The position numbers and the translations under genes were made by a program. This document shows positions 4,393 to 55,040 of a DNA stretch of 55,040 nt, one piece after another (the first letter of the stretch is position 1; every line of letters begins with the position of its first letter). This DNA comes from a virus (taxonomy: Duplodnaviria > Caudoviricetes). The stretch spans positions 1 through 55,040 of IMG/VR virus record IMGVR_UViG_3300030116_000815; one strand, written 5' to 3'. The notes below the pieces were generated by a model, which saw only the letters and a list, made by a program, of their open reading frames with translations, ran no database searches and was not told where the DNA came from.

Positions 4393-7194
4393 ATGGCTGA
4401 TGATATAAGCAATTTAATTAGTGGAATGGATGATATGACCCTAGAGGAACTAGGTGGTTCATTATTATCAAGACAAGCTAAACTAAACAGACAAAGAGAA
4501 AAAGAAGCTAGAAAATCTCAAAAGATTCAAAATGCTTTGGCTATTATAGGTATAGGTCAAGCATTAACAAAAGATGCTTTTAAAAGAAGAACTGATGAGT
4601 TAGATGCTATAGAAGCATTTAACAGACCTTTACAAGATTATAAATCAGAATCATCTAGAGTTATTGCTAATACTATAGAGCCTTTACAGAATGTAAATTT
4701 TGAAAGTCAAGATTATCTTAACTATAAAAATGACCCAAACTTAAAAAAATATTTTGCATCAATAGGTATACAAAATCCTACAGAGGGAGATTATAGAGCA
4801 GGGTATCTAAAAGAAAGTGACCAATTAGAATTATTTGCAGCACAGTTTAGAGAGCCTATTGATAAAACTATACAACAACTATGGGGTAAAAATTATGAAA
4901 CTCTAGTTGAAGATAGAGAAGCATATGATTATTTATTTGATAGTGCATCTTTTGATATAGCAAGACATTTCTTAAAAAATACTGCAACAGATGGTAGTTA
5001 TAGACCTGCATATGAAAATTTTCTAGATGAAATGGTATCACTATATACACAAGATGGTGTTGTAGATATGGATAGAGAAGATGTTTTACAAAGAGCTATG
5101 GGTCTAACTCAACCACAGTTAGCACAATTAGAAAGAGCATACTTTGCAAGAAAAGGTAATCAATATAGAAAAGGTATATTTGGTGGATTAGGAGATATAG
5201 GTAGAAAATGGTTTGGCGTATCTGGAAGAAATGGCTCTCCTAATATATTTGAAACAGCAAGTAATGTAGACATGTATGGAAACAGAGCTAAAGCAGATGG
5301 ACTATTTGAAATCAATGTACCATCACTAATTAGACAATCAACTAAAAACAATATTGCTGAACTTAAAAAAGGTAATGAATCTGAATTACCTATTGGTCCA
5401 GACACTAATGCTAGAATAGCTTATGAAGCAGATGCAGACTTTATATTATTAGCAGAGGGAGACCCTGCTAGTGGTGTTCCCGGATTAGTAGATGCTGGTG
5501 GTAAAGGAACAGATGGAAGATTTTATCAAGAGTTTTTTGCAAATAAACAATGGAAAGAACAACAACAAAGTTTATTAGCTAACATGGCTATTCCTACATA
5601 TGATGGAAAAAATCAAACTGGCAGAAATTTTGATTTTTTTAGAAGAAGTAGAAAATATATGAACTACACCAAAAATTTAAGTGGTGTTGAAATTAAAGAT
5701 TTTAATGTGCAAACAGGAATACTTGCAAAAGAAATGAGAGATAATCCAGACTTTGCTCGAAGAACTTTTAATGAAATAGCTGGAACTGTTGATGGATGGG
5801 AAGCTAATTCAGATGAAGTAAATGCAATATTTGACCAATATTATAATACTGATGAAGGTATTTTATTTATGGCTCATGCAATGGTAGCTAGAAATGGATT
5901 ATATAGTAGAGGCTTATTTCCAAAAGAAAGATATAGAGCTCCTAGTGATATTGTTGAAACATTTAATGAAGATTATTTTGAACCAGCATTTAATAAGAAT
6001 GGTGGTATATTACCAATAGTTAACGACAATATGATATACATAGATAGGGATGGATTTAAAACTAAAGAAGATTATAATGGTTTAAATCAAACTCAACAGG
6101 CTGCAATATATCATCAAACATTTTTAGGTATATCAGAATCAGATATGGATAATGGTACTAAAATAGAAATGTTAAATACTTTGTTTGAAACAGTTAGTCA
6201 TCCTACTGCAGGTCCTACAAATTTAGCTACATACTTACAAATTTTAGATAATTCAAATGCTAGAGATGTATTGTTTGCTGTAGATGGCGTAGACCCTACA
6301 GAGCCATTAAGTTCATTTATGGGCTATAAAGATATTGGTAAGCAAAATTCTAAAAATATAGAAACAACTATAGCAAAAATAAATCAAGAGTTAGGTAAAG
6401 AATATGGATTTGTACCTGACCCTAATAATCCTTTTAATGTTAGGGAACCCAGAACAAGTCAGTCACAAATAGATGACATGAATGCTAATCCTATATTTAA
6501 AACAGAAGAATTTGCTGGTACAGAATTAGGTGGACCTAACTATCAAAATATTTTAGACTCACAAATAGATAGAATGACTGAGGTCGGAATTATACCTGCA
6601 AATGCTAATATGGATATAGTAGAATATAAACTAAATAGATTAATGCAAACAATAGCATACGCAGAAAGTAAAGTAAACCCAGAAGCTAGAAATCCAGATT
6701 CAGGTGCTCAATCATTATTCCAATTCTTTGATACTTCTGCTAAAACAGCAGTTAATAGATTAAAGAGAGAACTAAGTTCAGATTATGATTTACCCGAAGA
6801 TATAAAAGCTATGATTCAAAGTGGAGATTATAACATATTAGATGCTAATGGTAATACTAGATTAAGTCCTGAAAGTCAAGTTTTATTAGGTTTGTCTAAT
6901 CTTATAGAAGACAGAGCAGTAGACATGGTAACTGCTGAAAGACTTCCAGATGGAACTGGCTCACAATATATGACAGATTACTTAACTTCTGACATAAATT
7001 CACCAGAAGAAAGAGAAGCTATTACAAATCTATATTATAATGTACATCATAAAGCTGAGCTTGGTAAACGACCGGGATTTATAGAAGTTCAAAGAATTAA
7101 ACTTAATTGGACTGATGCTTATAATAAATATTTTAGTCCTTTTACAAGAGAAGATAAACCAAAAATTCCTTTTGGAATGACACTCGGAACTTAA
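4393..7194 (+). CDS. Internal virion protein with C-terminal lytic transglycosylase-like domain
   Basis: 933 aa; GAGGA SD; IAYAES..NP.A.N..SGA.SLFQF resembles SLT motifs I and II. Confidence 0.6.
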   Translation: MADDISNLISGMDDMTLEELGGSLLSRQAKLNRQREKEARKSQKIQNALAIIGIGQALTKDAFKRRTDELDAIEAFNRPLQDYKSESSRVIANTIEPLQNVNFESQDYLNYKNDPNLKKYFASIGIQNPTEGDYRAGYLKESDQLELFAAQFREPIDKTIQQLWGKNYETLVEDREAYDYLFDSASFDIARHFLKNTATDGSYRPAYENFLDEMVSLYTQDGVVDMDREDVLQRAMGLTQPQLAQLERAYFARKGNQYRKGIFGGLGDIGRKWFGVSGRNGSPNIFETASNVDMYGNRAKADGLFEINVPSLIRQSTKNNIAELKKGNESELPIGPDTNARIAYEADADFILLAEGDPASGVPGLVDAGGKGTDGRFYQEFFANKQWKEQQQSLLANMAIPTYDGKNQTGRNFDFFRRSRKYMNYTKNLSGVEIKDFNVQTGILAKEMRDNPDFARRTFNEIAGTVDGWEANSDEVNAIFDQYYNTDEGILFMAHAMVARNGLYSRGLFPKERYRAPSDIVETFNEDYFEPAFNKNGGILPIVNDNMIYIDRDGFKTKEDYNGLNQTQQAAIYHQTFLGISESDMDNGTKIEMLNTLFETVSHPTAGPTNLATYLQILDNSNARDVLFAVDGVDPTEPLSSFMGYKDIGKQNSKNIETTIAKINQELGKEYGFVPDPNNPFNVREPRTSQSQIDDMNANPIFKTEEFAGTELGGPNYQNILDSQIDRMTEVGIIPANANMDIVEYKLNRLMQTIAYAESKVNPEARNPDSGAQSLFQFFDTSAKTAVNRLKRELSSDYDLPEDIKAMIQSGDYNILDANGNTRLSPESQVLLGLSNLIEDRAVDMVTAERLPDGTGSQYMTDYLTSDINSPEEREAITNLYYNVHHKAELGKRPGFIEVQRIKLNWTDAYNKYFSPFTREDKPKIPFGMTLGT

Positions 7195-45218: not shown

Positions 45219-46825
45219 TGGCAACAGCTCAACCATATACAGTAGCTTGTGAAGGTGGATTAGTAACAGCATCTAATCAAATAGATTTATTACGAAGTCC
45301 GGGTTCAGCAATAGAGTTACAAAACTTTGAAATATCTGTAGAAGGTGGATATAGAAGAATAAATGGATTTACAAAGTATGGTGGCAATAGTGCTGTACAA
45401 CCTACAGGAGGTGCTGCAACTATACAAGGTATAATGCCTTATGCTGATGGAGTTATAGTTTGTGCTGGAACTAGTATATATTTTAGTAATGATGGAGTAA
45501 ATTGGTTAGAAGTAAATAGAAGTTCAGTAGCAAGTAGTGGAGATAATCATACTGCATTTACTGGCAGAAGTGTTTTAACTAGAACAAATCAAGGACAAGT
45601 ACAGTTTGCATTATTTGAAGGTCCTAACTATCAATATGGACAATTAATTATATCAGATGCAAATAATAAACCTTATAGTTTTAGAATGGAAGGTTCTGGA
45701 GCAATAGCATCTAGAACATTTTTTTCAGAAGAAATAACTGTAAGTGGAACTAAAGGTGTACAGTTTATTACTCATCATGATAGACACTTAATAGCTGCAG
45801 GTGTAGAAGATAATTTAAGTACAGTATATTATAGTGCTTTGTTAGACCCAACAGATTTTAGTGGCTCTGGTTCAGGTGCAATTACATTAACAGACCAGAT
45901 TGTAGGAGTTGCACCATTTAGAACAGACTTATTTATATTTTGTAAGAATAGTATTCATAAACTTGTAAATATAAATAATTCTAGTACAGTAGCAGTAGTA
46001 CCGGTTGCTGAAAGTGTTGGATGTTTAAGTGGATATAGTATTCAAGAGATTGCTGGTGACTTGGTATTTTTAGCACCAGATGGTATAAGAACAATTGCTG
46101 GTACAGCGAGAATCGGAGATGTTGAGTTAGGAACTGTTAGTAATAAGATACAACCTATTATAACAACACTAGCAAAAAATATAGATTTATATCAAATATC
46201 TAGTGTAGTTATTAGAGAAAAATCTCAATATAGATTATACTATACAAACTTAGGTGCATCTGCAAATGCACAAAGAGGTATTATAGGAACACTAAGACCA
46301 AATGGATTTGAGTGGTCTGAAACAAAAGGATTAGAAGTTACAGCAGTAGGTGCTGACTTTGATGCTACAGAAGTAGAAAGATATTATCATGGTTCTAAAG
46401 ATGGTTATATTTATAATCATGATACAGGAAACTCTTTTGATGGCACAGCTATTATAGCAAGATATAAAACACCAGACTATGATTATGGTGATTTAGGAAC
46501 ATTAAAAACTTTACATTATTGTAAGATTTCTATTGGAGCAGAAGGAGTTGTAACTCCAGAACTACAAGTAAAGTTTGATTATTCAAATACAGAGATACCA
46601 CAGCACACTAATAATTTTAGTTTAGGTACTGTAAATCCATCTGCTGTATTTGGAGAAGCAGTATTTGGGTTCAATGTTTTTGGTGCAACATCAAACCCAA
46701 TGATTAGAATACCATTACAGGGTAGTGGTACAAGTAACAGTTTTACAATTTTAAGTAGCGATACAAAAGCACCTTATAAAATAAATGGATTGTATGTTGA
46801 TTACATACCATCTGGCAGGAGATAA
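45218..46825 (+). CDS. Tail nozzle / tubular protein B-like
   Basis: [16 protein letters not shown]; beta-propeller-like composition; FLAPDG.R. Confidence 0.75.
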
Positions 46826-46827
46826 AA

Positions 46828-49800
46828 ATGGCAGGATATACAAGACAAAGTTCGTTTAGTGATGGAGACAGCATAACTGCTGCTTTGTTTAATGATGAAT
46901 TTAACCAATTAGTAAATGCATTTCATGCAAGTACTGGACATACCCATGATGGTACTACAGCAGCTAATGGTGCTCCTATATCAGTATTGTACAGTAATAC
47001 AGTAACAATAGGTAAGAATGAAAATACTGATATAGCTATTACATTTAATGGAGCAACAACTGATGGTGTATTAACATGGATGGAAGATGAAGACTACTTT
47101 AAGTTTTCTGATGACATATTAGTAGATAGTACAGAAAAACTACAGTTTAGAGATACAGCAATATATATTAACTCTAGTACTGATGGGCAACTAGATATAG
47201 TAGCTGATACAGAAATACAATTAGCTGCAACTACAATAGATATAAATGGTGCAGTAGATATTTCAGGAGCTTTAACATTAGCTGGTACTTCATTAGCAGA
47301 AACTATTTCTGATACTGTAGGAGCTATGGTAAGTTCTAATACAGAAACAGGAGTTACAGTTACTTATGATGATAGTGATAATACATTAGACTTTGTAATC
47401 GGAACATTAAACCAAGATACTACAGGAAACGCTGCAACTGCCACAGCATTAGAAACTGCTAGAACTATTCATGGTGTAAGTTTTGATGGTACTGCTAATA
47501 TTGATTTATCAGAAGTTATTCAAGATACTGTAGGAGCTATGCTATCTAGTAATACTGAATCAGGTGTTACAGTTACATATCAAGATGCAGATGGAACTAT
47601 AGACTTTACTGTAGCTTCACAAACTGATGAAAACTTTACAACTGCTGACCATGCTAAATTAGATGGCATAGAAGCAAATGCAACAGCCGACCAGACTGCA
47701 GCAGAAATTAGAACATTAGTAGATAGTGCTAGTGATTCAAATGTATTTACAGATGCAGACCACACAAAACTAGATGGTATAGAAGCTAATGCAACAGCCG
47801 ACCAAACAGATGAAGAAATACAAGATATAGTAGGTGGAATGCTTACTGGTAATACTGAAACAGGTATTACTGTTACATATCAAGATGCAGATGGAACTGT
47901 AGATTTTGTTGTAGCATCTCAAACAGATGAAAACTTTACAACAGCAGACCACGCTAAATTAGATGGTATAGAAGCTAATGCGACTGCAGACCAAACAGAT
48001 GCTGAAATTAAAACTGCATATGAAAACAATTCAAACACAAATGCATTTACAGATACTTTATTAAGTAAACTAAATGCAATAGAAGCTGGAGCTACTGCAG
48101 ACCAAACAGCAGAAGAAATACAAGACATAGTAGGAGCTATGGTATCTTCTAATACTGAATCAGGTATTACAGTTACATATGAAGATAGTGATGGTACTCT
48201 TGATTTTGCAGTTGGTACATTAAACCAAGACACAACAGGTAATGCAGCTACAGCTACAGCATTAGCAACTGCAAGAACAATACATGGTGTATCTTTTGAT
48301 GGTACAGCAAATATAGATTTAACAGAAGTAGTACAAGATACTGTTGGAGCTATGTTCTCAAGTAATACTGAAACAGGTATTACAGTAACATATGATGATT
48401 CTGATGGTACTATTGATTTAGTAGTAGGAACTCTTAATCAAGATACTACAGGTAATGCAGCAACTGCAACAGCTTTAGAAACTGCAAGAACAATTAATGG
48501 TGTAAGTTTTGATGGTACTGCAAATGTTACAACACTTACTGCAGGTACAGGAGTATCTGTATCAGGTACAGAAGTATCTATAGGACAATCAGTAGCAACA
48601 AATGCAGATGTAGATTTTGCTACAGTTACTACTACAGGTAATGCAATTATTGGAGGAGACCTAACTGTAAGTGGAAATACAACTACTCTTAATACTGCAA
48701 CTTTAGATGTTGAAGATAAAAACATAACAATTAACAAAGGTTCAGGAGATACATCAGGTTCAGCAGATGGTGCTGGTATTACTATACAAGATGCAGTAGA
48801 TGCTTCAACAGATGCAACAATGTCATGGAGTGCTGCAAATGATAACTTTGTATTTTCACATGAAATAGCTGCTCCAAGTTTAGATATATCAGGAAATGTA
48901 GATGTTGATGGAACATTAGAAACAGATGCTTTAACTATAAATGGTACAGCATCAGTTCCTTTTGAATCTGCAGACCATACTAAATTAGATGGTATTGAAG
49001 CAAATGCTACTGCAGACCAAACAGCAGCAGAGATTAGAACACTAGTAGAATCAGCAAGTGACTCTAATGTATTTACTGATGCAGACCATACTAAACTAAA
49101 TGCTATAGAAGCTAGTGCTGATGTTACAGATGCTGCAAATGTAGGAAGTTCATTAACAGCATTTCCTACAGGTACAGATGCTGCAAGTTCAGACTTAGTT
49201 CCATATTATGATGTAACTGCAGGAGCATGGGAAAAATCTACAGTAACTAATTTAGCTTTACAAGGACCTACAGGACCTACAGGACCGACTGGTTCTACAG
49301 GACCTACAGGACCTACTGGACCAACTGGACCTACAGGACCTACAGGTTCTAAAGGACAAAAAGGTGAAGTAGGTGGAACAGGACCTACAGGTTCAACTGG
49401 ACCTACTGGACCTACTGGACCAAGTGGTTCTGCTGGGCAGAAAGGACAAAAAGGTGAAGTAGGTGGAACAGGACCTACAGGACCTACAGGACCTAGTGGT
49501 GCTGGTTCAGATGGTAGTAAAGGACAAAAAGGTGAGCCGGGTAATACTGGAGGAACAGGACCTACAGGTTCGACAGGACCAACTGGTAGTACTGGGCAAA
49601 AAGGACAAAAGGGTGAGGTAGGTAATACTGGACCCACAGGTAGTACTGGACCTACTGGACCATCAGGCTCTAATGGTTCTAATGGTAGTAAAGGACAAAA
49701 AGGTGAACCGGGTTCAACAGGACCAGCAGGACCTACAGGTAGCACAGGACCTACTGGTGGTACAGGACCTACTGGTGGCACAGGACCTACTGGGCAGAAA

Positions 49801-50907
49801 GGACAAAAAGGTGAGGTCGGTAATACAGGTCCTACAGGACCATCAGGACCAGCAGGTTCAGATGGAGATGATGGTAGTGCTGGACCTACAGGACCAACTG
49901 GACCTACAGGTAGCACAGGACCTACAGGTCAAAAAGGACAAAAAGGTCAAACAGGCTCCACAGGTGGCACAGGACCTACAGGACCTACTGGACCTACAGG
50001 ACCTTCTGGTTCAAATGGCTCTAATGGTTCTAAAGGACAAAAAGGTGAACCGGGTTCTACAGGTGGAACAGGACCTACAGGACCTGCAGGACCAACAGGT
50101 AGTACAGGACCTACAGGACCTACTGGAACTGGTCAAAAAGGACAAAAGGGTGAAGTTGGTGGTACAGGACCTACAGGACCTACAGGTGGTACAGGACCTA
50201 CAGGTGGTACAGGACCTACAGGACCAGCAGGACCTACAGGACCAACAGGTACTGGTCAGAAAGGACAAAAAGGACAAAAAGGACAAACAGGTGCTACAGG
50301 TGGCACAGGTGGTACAGGACCTACAGGTGGTGCAGGACCAGCAGGACCTCCGGGACCAGCAGGACCTCCGGGTTCAGCAGGTTCAGATGGTTCAAATGGT
50401 GGACCGGGACCAGCAGGACCTCCGGGACCTCCGGGTTCAGATGGTGGTTTTACAACCAACTCAAATGCACAAGTAAATAGTTTAGGTGCAGGTACTGCAG
50501 GTAGTGGTACAGCAGGTGAGATTAGAGCAACTAATAACATTACTGCTTACTATTCTGATGCTAGACTAAAAGACTTTGAAGGTACTATACCTAATGCATT
50601 GGCTAGAGTAAATAAACTACATGGTTATTACTTTAGAGAAAATCCAACTGCAAAAGAATTAGGTTATGAAAATGATAAACTACAAGTAGGTGTAAGTGCA
50701 CAGGAAGTACAAGAAGTATTACCAGAAGTAGTTACAGAAGCACCTATTGATGATAAATATTTAACAGTATGGTATGATAAATTAGTACCATTATTGATTG
50801 AAGCTATAAAAGAATTATCACAAGATTCACATCCTCCAAAATGTTTAGAAGACATGGAAGGATATGATGAGATTATTGAAAGAATAGAAGCTTTGGAGGA
50901 TAAATAA
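46828..50907 (+). CDS. Tail fibre with modular repeats, collagen triple-helix region and C-terminal S74 intramolecular chaperone
   Basis: N-terminal GH.HDGT anchor; repeats; about 390 aa of G-X-Y; SDARLK...GVSAQEV..VLPEVV...[15 protein letters not shown]. Confidence 0.9.
47311..49125 (+). repeat. Intragenic modular repeats in tail fibre
   Basis: Recurring [48 protein letters not shown] and [17 protein letters not shown] blocks. Confidence 0.85.
49264..50451 (+). repeat. Collagen-like G-X-Y repeat region (ggacctaca-type 9-bp repeats)
   Basis: GPT runs punctuated by ten G(S/Q)KGQKG blocks. Confidence 0.95.
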
Positions 50908-51611
50908 TGGCATTACCTAGTAGTGGTGCATTAAGTTTTGCAAACTTACAATCAGAGTTTGGTGGCTCTCATCCTATAACTATGGGTGAGTATGCTGCTT
51001 ATAGACAGTCTGGTTCTGGAAATACTATTGATATGGCTGATTTTTATGGAGCATTTTTATTTAATACTTCAAGTGATATAACATCAGGTTATGTATATGC
51101 TATTGTTCCGGGACCTAGAGGTGGTACTAGATATAGATTTAGTTCAGGATTTAATTCTCGTTCTTTTAGTTCTTTTGGTAATACTTATTCTGCTCCTTCT
51201 GGGTCAGCAAGTCCATCAACTAATATGGGAACATCTGGTGGACTTATAGGAACTGGTGGTACTTTAAGTAATGTAAGTCATGACATTACCAGTCTTTTAG
51301 GTGGTAACTCACTTATATTACAATCAAGTGGACCTAATAGTAATAGTGGTTTTACCAGTATGGAAGTAGCTGGTCATCAAACTACTAAAAGTTTTGCTAG
51401 AACAAGTGCTAATTATACTTATACTAGTGGTAAAGCTACATGGGAATGGTTAATAAGTGCAGCCGATTCAACTTACTTAAATGGTAATGTTTTTTCAAAT
51501 TCACATAGTTCTAAACTATTCGGATTACAAAGTCCTACTTATGGTTATGGTACTTCGGGAAGTAATGTTGGTACAGTAAGTAGTAGTGAAGCAACAATAA
51601 CTTTCTCATAA
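50907..51611 (+). CDS. Putative fibre-tip / receptor-binding protein
   Basis: [24 protein letters not shown]-terminus typical of fibre-associated adhesins; Ser/Gly/Thr-rich. Confidence 0.65.
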   Translation: MALPSSGALSFANLQSEFGGSHPITMGEYAAYRQSGSGNTIDMADFYGAFLFNTSSDITSGYVYAIVPGPRGGTRYRFSSGFNSRSFSSFGNTYSAPSGSASPSTNMGTSGGLIGTGGTLSNVSHDITSLLGGNSLILQSSGPNSNSGFTSMEVAGHQTTKSFARTSANYTYTSGKATWEWLISAADSTYLNGNVFSNSHSSKLFGLQSPTYGYGTSGSNVGTVSSSEATITFS

Positions 51612-51805
51612 TGGCAACTATATCATATACAATAAAAACAGATGTAATGGATGACACAGTTAAATGGGCATCTTTTACTCATGATGGTGTATACTACGAA
51701 ATAAGAGCAACATTAGATTCTAATGGTGATGTAGATGATACTAAAACACAAGAAGATTGTCAAGACTATATTGAGTTAAAACAAGATGAGGCAGAAACAG
51801 TATGA
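51611..51805 (+). CDS. Small acidic hypothetical protein
   Basis: TAATG and ATGA coupling. Confidence 0.6.
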   Translation: MATISYTIKTDVMDDTVKWASFTHDGVYYEIRATLDSNGDVDDTKTQEDCQDYIELKQDEAETV

Positions 51806-52611
51806 CAATACCTAAGTCAGGACCAGTAATAAGAACTTTTGATTATGCGTTAGATGAACCTAGAACTATGGCATATCATGATTGGATAGCTGCTAATGTT
51901 AATGGTAAAGTAGTTTGTGAATTAGGAGCAGGTTCTGGTATACTAACTTACTTGTGTGTAAAATACGGAGCTACAAAAGTATACTGTTATGAAAATAACA
52001 AACGAGTAATTAATTGGTTAAAAAGATTTTTTGCAAGTGAGACTAAAGTAGAAGTTGTAGAAGAAGATATTACAACAGCAACTTTTCCTACAGCAGATAT
52101 ATATTTACATGAAAATATTGGTTCAAATGTTTACATGGAAAATATATTAGGTATGTATACTAATTTAAAATCACAAGGTTTAGAAGATAAAACTTATCCT
52201 AATAAAATTAAAATACAATATGGAACTTATACTGGTGAATCACAACTTCACAGATATAACAAGTCTTCAACATATATAGCTGATACTTTTACTAATGCAA
52301 ATGTGTTATCTTTTTTTAATGCATGTCCAATGGTAGATAAAATATTACCTTGGACTTGGTATAATTTAACACACGACCAATCAGCTATAACTTTTAATGG
52401 TACACTATATGATGGAGATTTAAAAGATTTAACAAGGTATACTGATTCAGATGCAAATAGTCAGTACATATTTTGGGAAGTTAGTTTTGATGGTAGCTAT
52501 CCTATATCTAATTGGAAGTTTAGAAATCATTGGAATATAATAAAAGCTGCTGATGAATGTATGCCTATAATGGATAGTAGTGTAATGACATATACTGTTA
52601 AAGAAGTTTAA
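51802..52611 (+). CDS. PRMT-like SAM-dependent methyltransferase
   Basis: D.PRT.AY, VVCELGAGSGIL, GA.KVY.YE, double-E loop HENIGSNVYME, C-terminal NHW. Confidence 0.75.
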   Translation: MTIPKSGPVIRTFDYALDEPRTMAYHDWIAANVNGKVVCELGAGSGILTYLCVKYGATKVYCYENNKRVINWLKRFFASETKVEVVEEDITTATFPTADIYLHENIGSNVYMENILGMYTNLKSQGLEDKTYPNKIKIQYGTYTGESQLHRYNKSSTYIADTFTNANVLSFFNACPMVDKILPWTWYNLTHDQSAITFNGTLYDGDLKDLTRYTDSDANSQYIFWEVSFDGSYPISNWKFRNHWNIIKAADECMPIMDSSVMTYTVKEV

Positions 52612-52612
52612 T

Positions 52613-52641
52613 TTGACAAATGTTGTAAAAAACTGTATAAT
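52613..52641 (+). promoter_or_regulatory. Consensus sigma70 promoter for the glycosyltransferase/hydroxylase gene
   Basis: TTGACA-N17-TATAAT. Confidence 0.85.
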
Positions 52642-52658
52642 ACTATTACAGGTGAATC

Positions 52659-54494
52659 ATGAAAAAAATAGTAATCAGTTTAAAAAGAAGACAAGATAGA
52701 AAGAAATTATTTAAAAATAATAATTTAAAAGATTATAAATATTTAGAAGCTATAGATTATAAAACTTTAGATTCTAAAGATATTATAATTGATGAAGAGT
52801 TTAGAGACCCTTTTAAAAATAGACAAGTTTTAAAAAGTGAGGTAGCTTGTTTTTTATCCCATAGAAAAGCATGGGAAGAGTGTCATAGATTATATGAACC
52901 TGTAATTATATTAGAAGATGATGCAGTTATAAATGACACATGGGATGAAGAATATTACGAAGAGCTTATAAAAAAGTATGAGTTTGTTTACTTACAAAGA
53001 AATGAAAACGAACCACTTTTTGTTACACCGATAGATGGAAGAATAGAAAAACCATCTTATCCGTACAATTTAACAGCTTATGTAATAGACCCCATAACAG
53101 CTATGAAGTTAATGCATAACTATAATAAAATAATACCAGTTGATGAATATATTCCTCGACTTATTAAAAGAAATAAATTAGATGCAGTAGCTTTAAAACA
53201 AGATGCTTGTAATCAGTTACCAAGAAATATAAGTGAGAGTGACATCGAAAATAACACAATAGCACGAAACTTTACTGTACATCCAATTACAGTAGGTTCA
53301 GACAGATTAAAGTGCGTTAAGTTAAATACAAGTGCTAGAAAGCATGGTATAGAAGTAAAGAACTTAGGTACTAATGTAGAATGGAAAGGAACAGATATGT
53401 CTGGTCCGGGTGGTGGAATGAAAGCCAACCTATTAAGAGATTATGTAAATACTCTACCAGACAAAGATGTAGTTTTATTTACAGATGCATATGATGTTTT
53501 TTATGCAGATGATTTAGAAACTATAACTGAAAGGTATTTAGATTTTAATACTAAAGCAGTTTTTTCAGCAGAGCTATATTGCTATCCTGATTCTAGTATA
53601 GCAGATGAGTTTCCAGAATCTCATACACCTTATAGGTATTTGAATAGTGGAACATTTATAGCTCAAGTAGGAGAACTAAAAAAAATGTTTGCTTCTTCTA
53701 CTGTAGCTGATGATGGTGATGACCAACTGTATTATCAGAAGTTATTACTAAGTAATGAGTTTGATATGACTTTAGATTATGAAGGTTATATTTTTCAAAC
53801 ACATGAAGATGCAACAGGTATAAGTAGTTCAGGACAACTTTATAATCCTAGAACAGATTGCTGTGCATGTATTTATCATGGTAATGGTGGAGATAACACC
53901 AAAGAAAAATTTAATGCTTTGTATGATGTGTTTCATCCTAAGGCTGATTATTATTTTAGTCCTAGTAAATCATATGATATTATAGAAAATGATATGCTAG
54001 TAGTTGACTTTATGACACAAGAACAATGTGAAAGATTAATAGAGTTAGCTGATAATCATGGAAACTGGGATAGTTTAAAATATGACAAGTTTCCAGCACA
54101 AGAAATAAGACTAAAAGAATTAGGATTGTGGGCTGAATTAGAAACTAAATGGAATGAGTTTATTGTTCCTATAGTAGAAAAGTATTGGCAACCTACACAA
54201 ATGTATGGACTAAGAGATGCTTTTGTAATGAAATATAATTTAGAAACACAAAAAGATTTACCTTTACATACTGATGCAAGTTTAGTAACAGGAAGTGTAA
54301 AGTTAAATGATGATTATGAAGGAGCTGATTTATTTTATCCTAGACAAAATATCAGCAACAAAGATATACCAGTAGGTAAAATGATTTTATTTCCGGGTAC
54401 AGTAACACATGGACATGAGTGCTTACCATTAACAAAAGGAACTAAATATAGTTTTACCATATGGACAAACAGATTTCCCGGAGATAGTATATAA
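52659..54494 (+). CDS. Fusion: GT25 glycosyltransferase + PLOD-type glycosyltransferase + 2OG-Fe(II) lysyl-hydroxylase-like domain
   Basis: GT25: VISLKRRQDR, EVACFLSH..AW, ILEDD, PVDEYI. PLOD-GT: GGGMK, LFTDAYD, FSAE..CYP, YLNSG.FI, DDQLYY, IFQ, HGNG. Hydroxylase: FVMKY...Q..L.LHTDAS, FPG.VTH.HE.LP...GTKY. Confidence 0.88.
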   Translation: MKKIVISLKRRQDRKKLFKNNNLKDYKYLEAIDYKTLDSKDIIIDEEFRDPFKNRQVLKSEVACFLSHRKAWEECHRLYEPVIILEDDAVINDTWDEEYYEELIKKYEFVYLQRNENEPLFVTPIDGRIEKPSYPYNLTAYVIDPITAMKLMHNYNKIIPVDEYIPRLIKRNKLDAVALKQDACNQLPRNISESDIENNTIARNFTVHPITVGSDRLKCVKLNTSARKHGIEVKNLGTNVEWKGTDMSGPGGGMKANLLRDYVNTLPDKDVVLFTDAYDVFYADDLETITERYLDFNTKAVFSAELYCYPDSSIADEFPESHTPYRYLNSGTFIAQVGELKKMFASSTVADDGDDQLYYQKLLLSNEFDMTLDYEGYIFQTHEDATGISSSGQLYNPRTDCCACIYHGNGGDNTKEKFNALYDVFHPKADYYFSPSKSYDIIENDMLVVDFMTQEQCERLIELADNHGNWDSLKYDKFPAQEIRLKELGLWAELETKWNEFIVPIVEKYWQPTQMYGLRDAFVMKYNLETQKDLPLHTDASLVTGSVKLNDDYEGADLFYPRQNISNKDIPVGKMILFPGTVTHGHECLPLTKGTKYSFTIWTNRFPGDSI

Positions 54495-54736
54495 TGGAAA
54501 TATCAACATATTTAATTTGGAATGTTATTATAACTTTGGTACTAGCACCATTGTTATTTTCTATTCGTAAAAATGAGGCAGAGGCTAAAAGAATAGATAT
54601 ACTATTAAATAAAACTAGAGAAGAAATAGCTAGAGAATATGTTACTAAACAAGAAGTAAAAGAAGATATGACTGCTCTAATGGAAAGGCTAGAAAAACTA
54701 CATGAAAAAGTAGATAAACTTTTTGAGGTTAAATAA
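54494..54736 (+). CDS. Small membrane-anchored coiled-coil protein
   Basis: N-terminal TM helix, ILLNKTREE.A..YVTK, L..K.D.L. Confidence 0.65.
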   Translation: MEISTYLIWNVIITLVLAPLLFSIRKNEAEAKRIDILLNKTREEIAREYVTKQEVKEDMTALMERLEKLHEKVDKLFEVK

Positions 54737-55040
54737 TGGCAAAACGAAAAAGAAAAAATAAATATAAGTCAAAAAACAAAAGAGATAGATTAAATATGGA
54801 TAAGGGTGGAGTAGTAAGAAATCCTTACAATAGAGGTTCATTAGCTGTTAATCCTTTACAACCCTTAGAACGAAAAGCTAAGGCAGATGACCCTTCATCG
54901 GCATATAGTTCACCTCCTGATTATAGAGTTATGGATAATGCTGTTAGTCAAGGAGTTACTGTTCAAGATAGAGGAACAGGAGTGGGTGAAATGGGTAATT
55001 TTGGTCCGGGAAGTTTTCCGGGTAACCCTAGTAGGTATAT
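54736..55040 (+). CDS. 5' part of the internal virion protein that continues at window start
   Basis: TAATG coupling, GAGG SD, open to the window end (MAKRKRKNKYK...), in frame with 3..2702. Confidence 0.7.
   Translation, partial: MAKRKRKNKYKSKNKRDRLNMDKGGVVRNPYNRGSLAVNPLQPLERKAKADDPSSAYSSPPDYRVMDNAVSQGVTVQDRGTGVGEMGNFGPGSFPGNPSRY
54941..55040. repeat. Terminal direct repeat, right copy
   Basis: Matches 1-100 except at the second-to-last base. Confidence 0.9.

Follow-up and report, generated by a model that had tools for sequence, protein, structure and literature searches.

The window analysed here is the whole of IMG/VR virus record IMGVR_UViG_3300030116_000815 (55,040 bp; completeness rating 100%), and the gene in question is an open reading frame (ORF) at 51802–52611, which encodes a predicted S-adenosylmethionine (SAM)-dependent methyltransferase of 269 amino acids (aa). 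It comes from a marine phage, and the features described below between positions 46828 and 54494 lie on the plus strand. Protein arginine methylation is regarded as a mainly eukaryotic modification. By its core features, as judged from sequence comparisons and a structural model, the gene product appears to be a compact, phage-specific member of the protein arginine methyltransferase (PRMT) superfamily that is atypical in its C-terminal half, and it is probably an active PRMT-type methyltransferase. The gene is translationally coupled to those of a tail fibre, a putative fibre-tip protein and a 64-aa protein, and the enzyme may methylate one arginine, R71, of the tip protein; we give this reading a probability of about one half. 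A fuller version is more tentative and falls somewhat short of an even chance. In that version the protein would be the first phage-encoded PRMT, it would belong to a mobile three-gene 'modified adhesin' cassette, and methylation of an exposed Arg-Gly hairpin would adjust adsorption or protect this loop against proteases or factors of the host.

The first-pass annotation listed a series of PRMT motifs in this gene, and every one of them is found in the 269-aa translation. The N-terminal helix carries D18-E-P-R21-T-M-A-Y25 (D-x-x-R-T-x-x-Y; residues 18–25, positions 51853–51876), which aligns with PRMT6 and CARM1. SAM-binding motif I, ELGAGSGIL (residues 40–48, 51919–51945), aligns with the PRMT pattern VLDVGxGxGIL, and GATKV occupies residues 56–60. 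The double-E loop HENIGSNVYME (residues 103–113, 52108–52140), identified by HMMER and hhalign, places E104 and E113 nine residues apart. A putative THW-type loop, N242-H243-W244 (52525–52533), is conserved among homologues to the extent given below.

Relatives of the methyltransferase occur at at least 122 IMG/VR loci, 80 of which were fetched. The conservation set comprises 64 distinct phage sequences: the window protein and the 63 distinct ones among 80 ORFs from IMG/VR loci. D18, the motif I glycines (G42, G44 and G46), E104, E113 and W244 are each present in 64/64, as is an acidic residue (E or D) at position 64, after β2. R21 is arginine in 55 and lysine in 9, Y25 is kept in 62/64, and the residue before E104 is H in 57 and Q in 7; the strict motif D-h-h-h-[HQS]-E-x8-E is retained by 63 of the 64 homologues. 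In the THW-type loop, position 242 is S, N or T in all 64 and H243 is kept in 47; several homologues have a literal THW. Such invariance of the SAM-binding and catalytic residues is what an active enzyme with a guanidinium pocket of the PRMT type would show, and the catalytic residues are under selection.

Four independent kinds of comparison, by single sequence, profile, profile-profile alignment and fold, assign the core of the protein to the PRMTs, with a similarity well beyond chance. When the single sequence was compared with the PDB by phmmer, the ten best rows were PRMT6 (E 3.8e-6 to 1.7e-5), followed mostly by CARM1, PRMT3, PRMT7 and PRMT2, with one unrelated hypothetical protein (1wy7) in the range. 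The HMMER alignment with PRMT6 sets D18 and R21 on the D-x-x-R-T-x-x-Y stretch, motif I on motif I, and E104 and E113 on the double-E glutamates. A profile of 25 metagenomic homologues matched CARM1 best (E 3e-12), and its 60 best PDB rows were all arginine methyltransferases except one labelled 'MGC151858 protein'. A search of 1.84 billion proteins returned 276 matches at E ≤ 1e-3; ten longer, cellular ones among the more distant matches were scanned with Pfam, and 4/10 scored above the cut-off of the PRMT_C family. With hhalign, a profile of 24 phage-type sequences aligned over residues 8–146 with a profile of six of these ten proteins, the four PRMT_C-positive ones included (probability 99.8%, E 1.3e-28). 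The AlphaFold2 model of the enzyme (predicted local distance difference test, pLDDT, 81; predicted template-modelling score, pTM, 0.83) shows beta strands from residue 135 onward. The top 50 Foldseek matches listed for this model in the PDB are all PRMTs, aligned over 256–306 columns, with a best E of 5.7e-10.

The enzyme shares with the cores of eukaryotic type I/III PRMTs (PRMT6, CARM1/PRMT4, PRMT1/Hmt1, PRMT3 and trypanosome PRMT7) the D-x-x-R-T-x-x-Y helix, motif I, the acidic residue after β2 and the E-x8-E double-E loop, and apparently also the [S/T/N]-H-W loop near the C-terminus and the two-domain fold over which Foldseek aligns them. In contrast to them it is phage-encoded, has 269 aa where the PRMT chains in the Foldseek table have 298–351 residues, and is only ~15–19% identical to them in the fold alignments. 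Its beta-barrel is reduced, and it has His or Gln before the first Glu of the double-E loop. The region where a dimerisation arm would sit (residues 151–190) is short and of low confidence (pLDDT 52–65). The initial description of the protein as a 'eukaryote-type' PRMT is supported as regards the PRMT fold, the intact double-E loop and, more tentatively, the THW-type loop, but has to be narrowed to a compact phage-specific clade without a match to Pfam PRMT_C.

The gene order gives a candidate substrate. A coupled gene string is headed by a 1359-aa tail fibre with a long collagen-like G-X-Y region (46828–50907; PHROG tail-fibre and collagen-like families). It continues with a 234-aa tail-fibre-associated 'tip' protein (50907–51611), which has a ~50-aa N-terminal docking module and a beta-rich C-domain, and with a 64-aa acidic protein (orf64; 51611–51805), and it ends with the methyltransferase. 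The stop and start codons overlap at each junction, as TAATG between fibre and tip, TAATG between tip and orf64, and ATGA between orf64 and methyltransferase, and the four genes are translationally coupled. The 47-nt gap after the methyltransferase gene contains a perfect sigma-70-type promoter-like site, TTGACA-17-TATAAT (52613–52641), the only 12/12 consensus match within 46000–55040. It precedes a gene for a PLOD-like enzyme (52659–54494), and the site suggests that PLOD and the genes after it may form a separate transcription unit. The overlaps from fibre to methyltransferase, followed by this site, therefore place the enzyme in the fibre/tip string and not in the PLOD unit.

R-G-G and R-G are the classical target preference of several PRMTs. 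The sequence VPGPRGGTRYR, including R71, is indeed present in the 234-aa ORF two genes upstream of the methyltransferase, as had been reported, and RGG or GRG occurs only four times in the 11,721 residues of the 27 plus-strand ORFs of the window that were examined. G69-P-R71-G-G73 (51111–51125), the hairpin turn with the proposed methyl-acceptor, is conserved in the tip family. In 12/12 aligned tip proteins, at 28–81% identity, R71 is invariant and G72 nearly so; across the three genome backgrounds described below the tip proteins are only 28–35% identical, yet the arginine column of GPRGG does not vary. All 22 methyltransferase-linked tip proteins contain R-G, and forms without the methyltransferase lack this entire segment. 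The proposal of GPRGGTRYR as a target motif survives for R71 but not for its other two arginines, which are not conserved. The other invariant arginine of the tip protein, R165, looks structural, because it is mostly kept in short forms as well (165–181 aa) that have the same C-domain without the hairpin segment and no linked enzyme.

The co-occurrence of hairpin and enzyme was scanned with the N-terminal module as seed, a choice blind to both, and yielded 20 loci in IMG/VR and 60 in a metagenome collection. Twelve of the metagenome loci have the hairpin, in the variants GPRGG, SGRRGG, GPRGV, SGRGY and GPRNS. Eleven of them have 640 bp or more of downstream DNA, and the enzyme is present in 11/11; the remaining locus (GPRNS) stops 301 bp past the gene and is uninformative. 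Among the 48 stretches fetched for hairpin-less loci, 26 of which have at least 1 kb downstream, an intact enzyme was found in none. Among the IMG/VR loci, the enzyme is present in both hairpin-bearing ones for which downstream DNA is available, and absent from 17 others. Since some contigs occur in both collections, the tip proteins were also clustered by identity. At 70% identity, with the hairpin defined as G-[PGR]-R-G, the enzyme accompanies 11/11 hairpin clusters vs 0/17 others; at 50%, seven hairpin clusters have it and seven others lack it. A search of whole records found the enzyme in 0/10 hairpin-less records and in 4/4 expected positives. One of these hairpin-less records is a 53,141-bp, 100%-complete sister genome, which keeps the order tube B, fibre, N-terminal module joined to another C-domain, PLOD, orf80 and internal proteins, and lacks the enzyme. 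The association shows long-term co-retention and co-transfer, not repeated independent origin. A 163-aa ORF that follows a 403-aa tip-type protein in one of the 48 hairpin-less metagenome loci (L174:1283–1774) looks like a decayed methyltransferase; it matches profile positions 80–121 only, lacks motif I and both glutamates, and has W-S in place of H-E.

Ten IMG/VR loci of the close subfamily contain upstream sequence, and they keep the order tip-like protein, 64–73-aa protein, methyltransferase. orf64 is detected by tblastn in 8/10 of them, and the other two (L007 and L010) hold an aligning 73-aa orf64-like ORF instead. The cassette is found in three backgrounds. One is the podovirus type of the window, which has PLOD. 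Another is a phage whose collagen-like fibre has 1696 aa and whose PLOD gene lies 1.2 kb further on. The third consists of contigs up to 126 kb long that have neither PLOD nor a collagen-like fibre nearby (L005–L011). The tip C-domain travels from one phage genome to another together with orf64 and the enzyme, as a single cassette.

The most likely mode of action would be as follows. It would be expressed late, coupled to the fibre, the tip protein and the 64-aa protein. SAM would be bound in the Rossmann domain through motif I, E64, D89 and R21, and the guanidinium of tip R71 would be held between E104 and E113, under the H243/W244 loop on the reduced beta-barrel. One or two methyl groups would then be moved from SAM to the guanidino group of R71, before or during tail assembly. 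The finished virion would then display methyl-arginine on an exposed loop of the apparatus with which it recognises the host, and one may speculate that this alters receptor contact, blocks proteolysis at an exposed arginine or masks the loop. The data show the fold family, the conserved catalytic residues, the coupling of the genes and the joint occurrence of hairpin and enzyme; arginine as acceptor, R71 as site, its methylation state and any effect on adsorption, stability or evasion are inferred. The broader claim of the first-pass annotation, that the phage methylates arginines on its receptor-binding protein, agrees with the invariance of R71 and with the occurrence of the enzyme only alongside the hairpin; its methylation and receptor parts stay conditional. 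A predicted complex of the enzyme, SAM and the tip protein gave no answer (score 0.18, mark 0.32) and is used neither for nor against binding.

Several results weigh against methylation of R71 and are taken here with the alternatives to which they relate. The AlphaFold2 model of the tip protein is poor (pLDDT 59); it places R71 in a turn between predicted strands 61–68 and 74–82, and the exposure of R71 is accordingly uncertain. The tip-linked enzymes (n=17) form a single clade (SH-aLRT 100 in a quick IQ-TREE tree, for which the read-through ORFs L099 and L117 were trimmed to their last 300 residues). The cluster counts are thus not independent trials, and the association of hairpin and enzyme may stem from one ancestral event plus linkage. 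The 70 more distant loci that were fetched (28–44% identity) have no tip-like neighbour. In 46 of the distant members the gene immediately follows one for the small terminase, and in 42 it immediately precedes one for the large terminase (e.g. L078:5004–5750). The terminase-flanked members adjoin genes for head-tail adaptor, head closure, sheath stabiliser, sheath and tube in myovirus-type clusters (L053–L113 and others). A further 10–12 sit between the genes for the large and small subunits of ribonucleotide reductase. A tip-like gene was found in 0/5 records of distant members, which are 40–71% complete. Adjacency to a tip gene is not a family-wide rule, and for the family as a whole there must therefore be targets that are different or encoded elsewhere, perhaps proteins of the host.

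These settings favour the alternative that survives best, although we consider it unlikely: that the protein is a genuine PRMT-type enzyme whose target is another virion protein or a host protein, modified for late takeover or protection, and that its linkage to the tip gene is historical. One capture event could explain the linkage of a single clade, and the window's own enzyme, too, may have a non-adjacent target. According to PMC13288928, numerous phage and host proteins are methylated on arginine and lysine in the course of infection by phages without a methyltransferase gene. However, the enzyme is found strictly with the hairpin-type tip protein and is absent otherwise, and this holds in three backgrounds and down to ~28% tip and 52% enzyme identity. 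In addition, the sister genome that has the fibre, PLOD and the internal proteins but a different tip domain is the one without the enzyme, and the tip, orf64 and enzyme genes are translationally coupled.

A single case, locus L114 from the sister group of the tip-linked clade, points the other way, towards an R-G target next door. Its methyltransferase gene (4962–5672) directly follows that of a 167-aa protein of a different fibre module (4462–4965) to which no PHROG family could be assigned and whose only R-G lies in EGGRGGTT. This protein is the last in a row of three small paralogues (153, 173 and 167 aa); the first two, which do not adjoin the enzyme, lack the G-G-R-G-G motif.

Methylation of an arginine in the tip protein also has to be weighed against a PRMT fold that acts on something other than a protein arginine. 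Lysine, histidine or an N-terminus, small compounds with a guanidino or amine group, and sugars of the glycosylated collagen-like fibre are the candidates. The divergent C-terminal half of the enzyme, which has no match to Pfam PRMT_C (PF22528) at E ≤ 1, leaves room for this. Compared alone with PRMTs by hhalign, this half gives a weak alignment (E 0.007, probability 2–6%), the register of which sets the phage [S/T/N]-H-W on the PRMT THW. The Foldseek TM-scores to PRMTs (TMq) are moderate at 0.46–0.55, and the root-mean-square deviations are large (7–15 Å). The structural comparison with PRMTs that had been proposed as a check comes out in favour of the fold, all listed matches being PRMTs, with the reservation that the TM-scores are moderate and PRMT_C is not matched. 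Bacterial PRMT-like domains serve in peptide and secondary-metabolite pathways, as summarised in PMC3417536, and a glycosyltransferase/hydroxylase gene lies next door to the enzyme. We nevertheless regard a non-arginine target as quite improbable. Both guanidinium-binding glutamates, at PRMT spacing, and the tryptophan of the THW loop are kept in 64/64 homologues, and the collagen-like repeats of the fibre hold lysine and no arginine. The collagen-like fibre or its sugars, hydroxylysine included, was considered as substrate and rejected as the leading interpretation, because the cassette occurs without PLOD or a collagen-like fibre nearby (L005–L011) and PLOD occurs without the cassette. For the same reason, and because PLOD has a promoter-like site of its own, the earlier pairing of the methyltransferase with the collagen enzyme is not upheld.

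Formal annotation would lead to a different class altogether, that of Erm/KsgA-type rRNA adenine dimethylases or other nucleic-acid methyltransferases. The best formal Pfam match of the enzyme is RrnaAD (PF00398; E 4e-7, 29.8 bits vs a cut-off of 24), a label also precomputed for 11/26 close homologues. An Erm family of NCBIfam is matched at E 2.4e-10, and PHROGs give weak 'DNA methyltransferase' matches (6e-4). However, these matches span only residues ~34–106, the generic SAM-binding part; the RrnaAD match covers residues 35–103 (profile positions 31–98 of 263) and does not extend over the catalytic motif and the C-terminal helical domain of PF00398. The NCBIfam score is 40 bits vs a cut-off of 212. 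KsgA-type chains reach E 0.02 in the phmmer search vs 4e-6 for PRMT6, no KsgA or Erm chain is among the 60 best PDB rows of the family profile, and the listed Foldseek matches in the PDB are all PRMTs. The preference for PRMTs in the PDB and fold searches amounts to several orders of magnitude. N-x-P-Y-type sequences are the catalytic motif of adenine methylases; in the phage enzyme H-E-N-I-G stands at this site, and the translation contains no N-x-P-Y. The common ground with Erm/KsgA enzymes is the class I SAM-binding half, while the catalytic motif and the C-terminal domain differ. The rRNA-methylase assignment, hardly credible for this protein, was rejected since its Pfam and NCBIfam matches are limited to the generic SAM-binding segment. 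The PF00398 label on the 11/26 homologues is probably a systematic mis-annotation of the phage methyltransferase family, and Pfam thus sets an annotation trap by labelling these proteins as rRNA adenine dimethylases. Equally far-fetched is a catalytically dead PRMT-like protein whose role towards the tip protein would be structural or that of a chaperone; the gene sits in an assembly-gene string beside a small chaperone-like protein, and a degenerate remnant exists in L174, but invariance of the SAM-binding and catalytic residues in 64/64 homologues would be unexpected for a pseudo-enzyme.

Among known proteins, PRMT catalytic cores stand closest to the enzyme; its PRMT-superfamily core is familiar, and the carrier, the size and the presumed substrate are new. 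Full-text searches, with subscription journals mostly outside their scope, turned up no description of a phage-encoded PRMT among the papers listed and no paper combining an arginine methyltransferase with a cyanophage. Lysine and arginine methylation has been described on virion proteins of Cellulophaga phages, including a putative tail fibre (PMC13288928, 2026). That study states that methylation of phage proteins had never been reported before, and attributes it to the host, as its phages have no methyltransferase gene. The window phage differs in that it would bring a PRMT-like enzyme of its own. Bacterial PRMT-like peptide methylases were found in secondary-metabolite operons by Aravind and colleagues, and eukaryotic PRMTs are thought to derive from a prokaryotic PRMT radiation (both as summarised in PMC3417536). 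By description, those bacterial methylases lie in operons with non-ribosomal peptide synthetases and dioxygenases or are fused to synthetases, while the phage enzyme is free-standing, has 250–300 aa and belongs to morphogenesis gene strings.

Searches of 50,697 GenBank phage records gave no match, either by megablast of 50907–54736 or by tblastn, for which the enzyme, three further members of its family and the tip protein served as queries. A pattern search of a genome collection, which reaches close relatives only, produced 151 pattern matches and no relative. BFVD contains two proteins that are clearly related in structure: D6PIP9 (TMq 0.69, 29% identity) and one from an uncultured Caudovirales phage.

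If methylation of R71 is correct, enzymatic arginine methylation would be a widespread and unrecognised step of virion morphogenesis in the ocean, given at least 122 marine phage loci, many of them in myovirus head-tail strings. A defined candidate site, R71, would make the chemical tailoring of host-recognition proteins by phages testable. The protein would also offer enzymology a candidate minimal PRMT of ~250–270 aa and add a new branch to the prokaryotic radiation thought ancestral to eukaryotic PRMTs.

The 234-aa protein had been called a fibre-tip or receptor-binding protein, and its position and modularity are what this identity is drawn from. It matches 0 Pfam and 0 NCBIfam families, and an Atlas search returned only unnamed viral clusters and a weak Gp38_N lead (a cluster at rank 24, score 0.82, in which 12% of members carry the family). 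Its family comprises 102 homologues, in which the ~50-aa N-terminal module is joined to varying C-domains. In 16/18 loci (L021–L038) the tip gene follows a fibre gene with a C-end homologous to fibre residues ~1190–1340, and one of the two exceptions has only 219 bp upstream. The pairing of N-terminal module and fibre end, together with the exchangeable C-domain, is the basis for considering the protein a candidate fibre tip or receptor-binding protein. Tailed phages have modules of a tail-fibre tip adhesin and a small accessory protein, for example those of the T-even gp37/gp38 type. The window's tip protein has in common with such modules a gene directly after the fibre gene, a small downstream protein, a conserved docking module paired with the fibre C-end and an exchangeable C-domain, but there is no detectable sequence or family match between them. 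We know of no tip-adhesin module with a dedicated protein methyltransferase.

Variants of the tip protein were seen at several loci. At L010:8750–9298 and L012:383–931 a second, short tip-like gene (182 aa) with a canonical N-terminal module lies directly downstream of the methyltransferase; the two proteins have N-R-R-H at the position of the hairpin arginine. Proteins of 383–385 aa (L031:440–1597, L038:1092–2243, L170 and L178–L180) combine the tip N-terminal module with a different end domain after a poly-Gly stretch (GGFCIHEDMLVST), a domain that may resemble Hint/intein-like autoprocessing domains. Sister podoviruses (L033–L037, L167 and L171–L173) have a 243–246-aa protein in which the module is joined to another C-domain ending in a Gly run and FEP. 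This gene is followed directly by PLOD, without a 64-aa gene or a methyltransferase.

The 64-aa protein was considered as an arginine substrate and rejected, since it has no conserved arginine and its relatives occur without the enzyme. Its invariant residues are D11, A20 and F22. Relatives of orf64 also follow tip genes that have no methyltransferase, and this, together with the absence of a conserved arginine, makes it likely that orf64 is an assembly factor or partner of the tip protein rather than a substrate.

The PLOD-like enzyme is a predicted three-domain protein (GT25, PLOD-GT and a 2-oxoglutarate-Fe(II) oxygenase) that matches PF01755 (3e-19), PF25342 (4.5e-47), PF13640 (1e-3) and PHROG 61 (4e-111). 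It is also found in sister genomes that lack the methyltransferase, just as the cassette is found without it. Full-length relatives occur in the Synechococcus myophages S-PRM1, S-CAM9 and S-8S5x (47–50% identity) and in Roseobacter phage CRP-6 (39%), where they are annotated only as 2-oxoglutarate-Fe(II) oxygenase or hypothetical. The fibre beside the PLOD-like gene has hundreds of G-X-Y residues rich in GQKGQKGE.

The genome has a podovirus layout, with large terminase, portal, major capsid protein, two tail-tube proteins and the collagen-like fibre; other parts of the window encode a DNA polymerase, internal-virion-type proteins and a ribonucleotide reductase. With its counterpart in Pelagibacter phage HTVC115P the major capsid protein shares 59.7% identity, and with those of Puniceispirillum phage HMO-2011 and the roseophage CRP phages ~40–44%. 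The ORF at 54736–55038, which runs off the end of the window, and that at 3–2702, which is already open where the window begins, belong to the same gene, since a single 966-aa ORF in locus L002 matches both. The record therefore represents a complete genome, either circularly permuted or cut at its termini.

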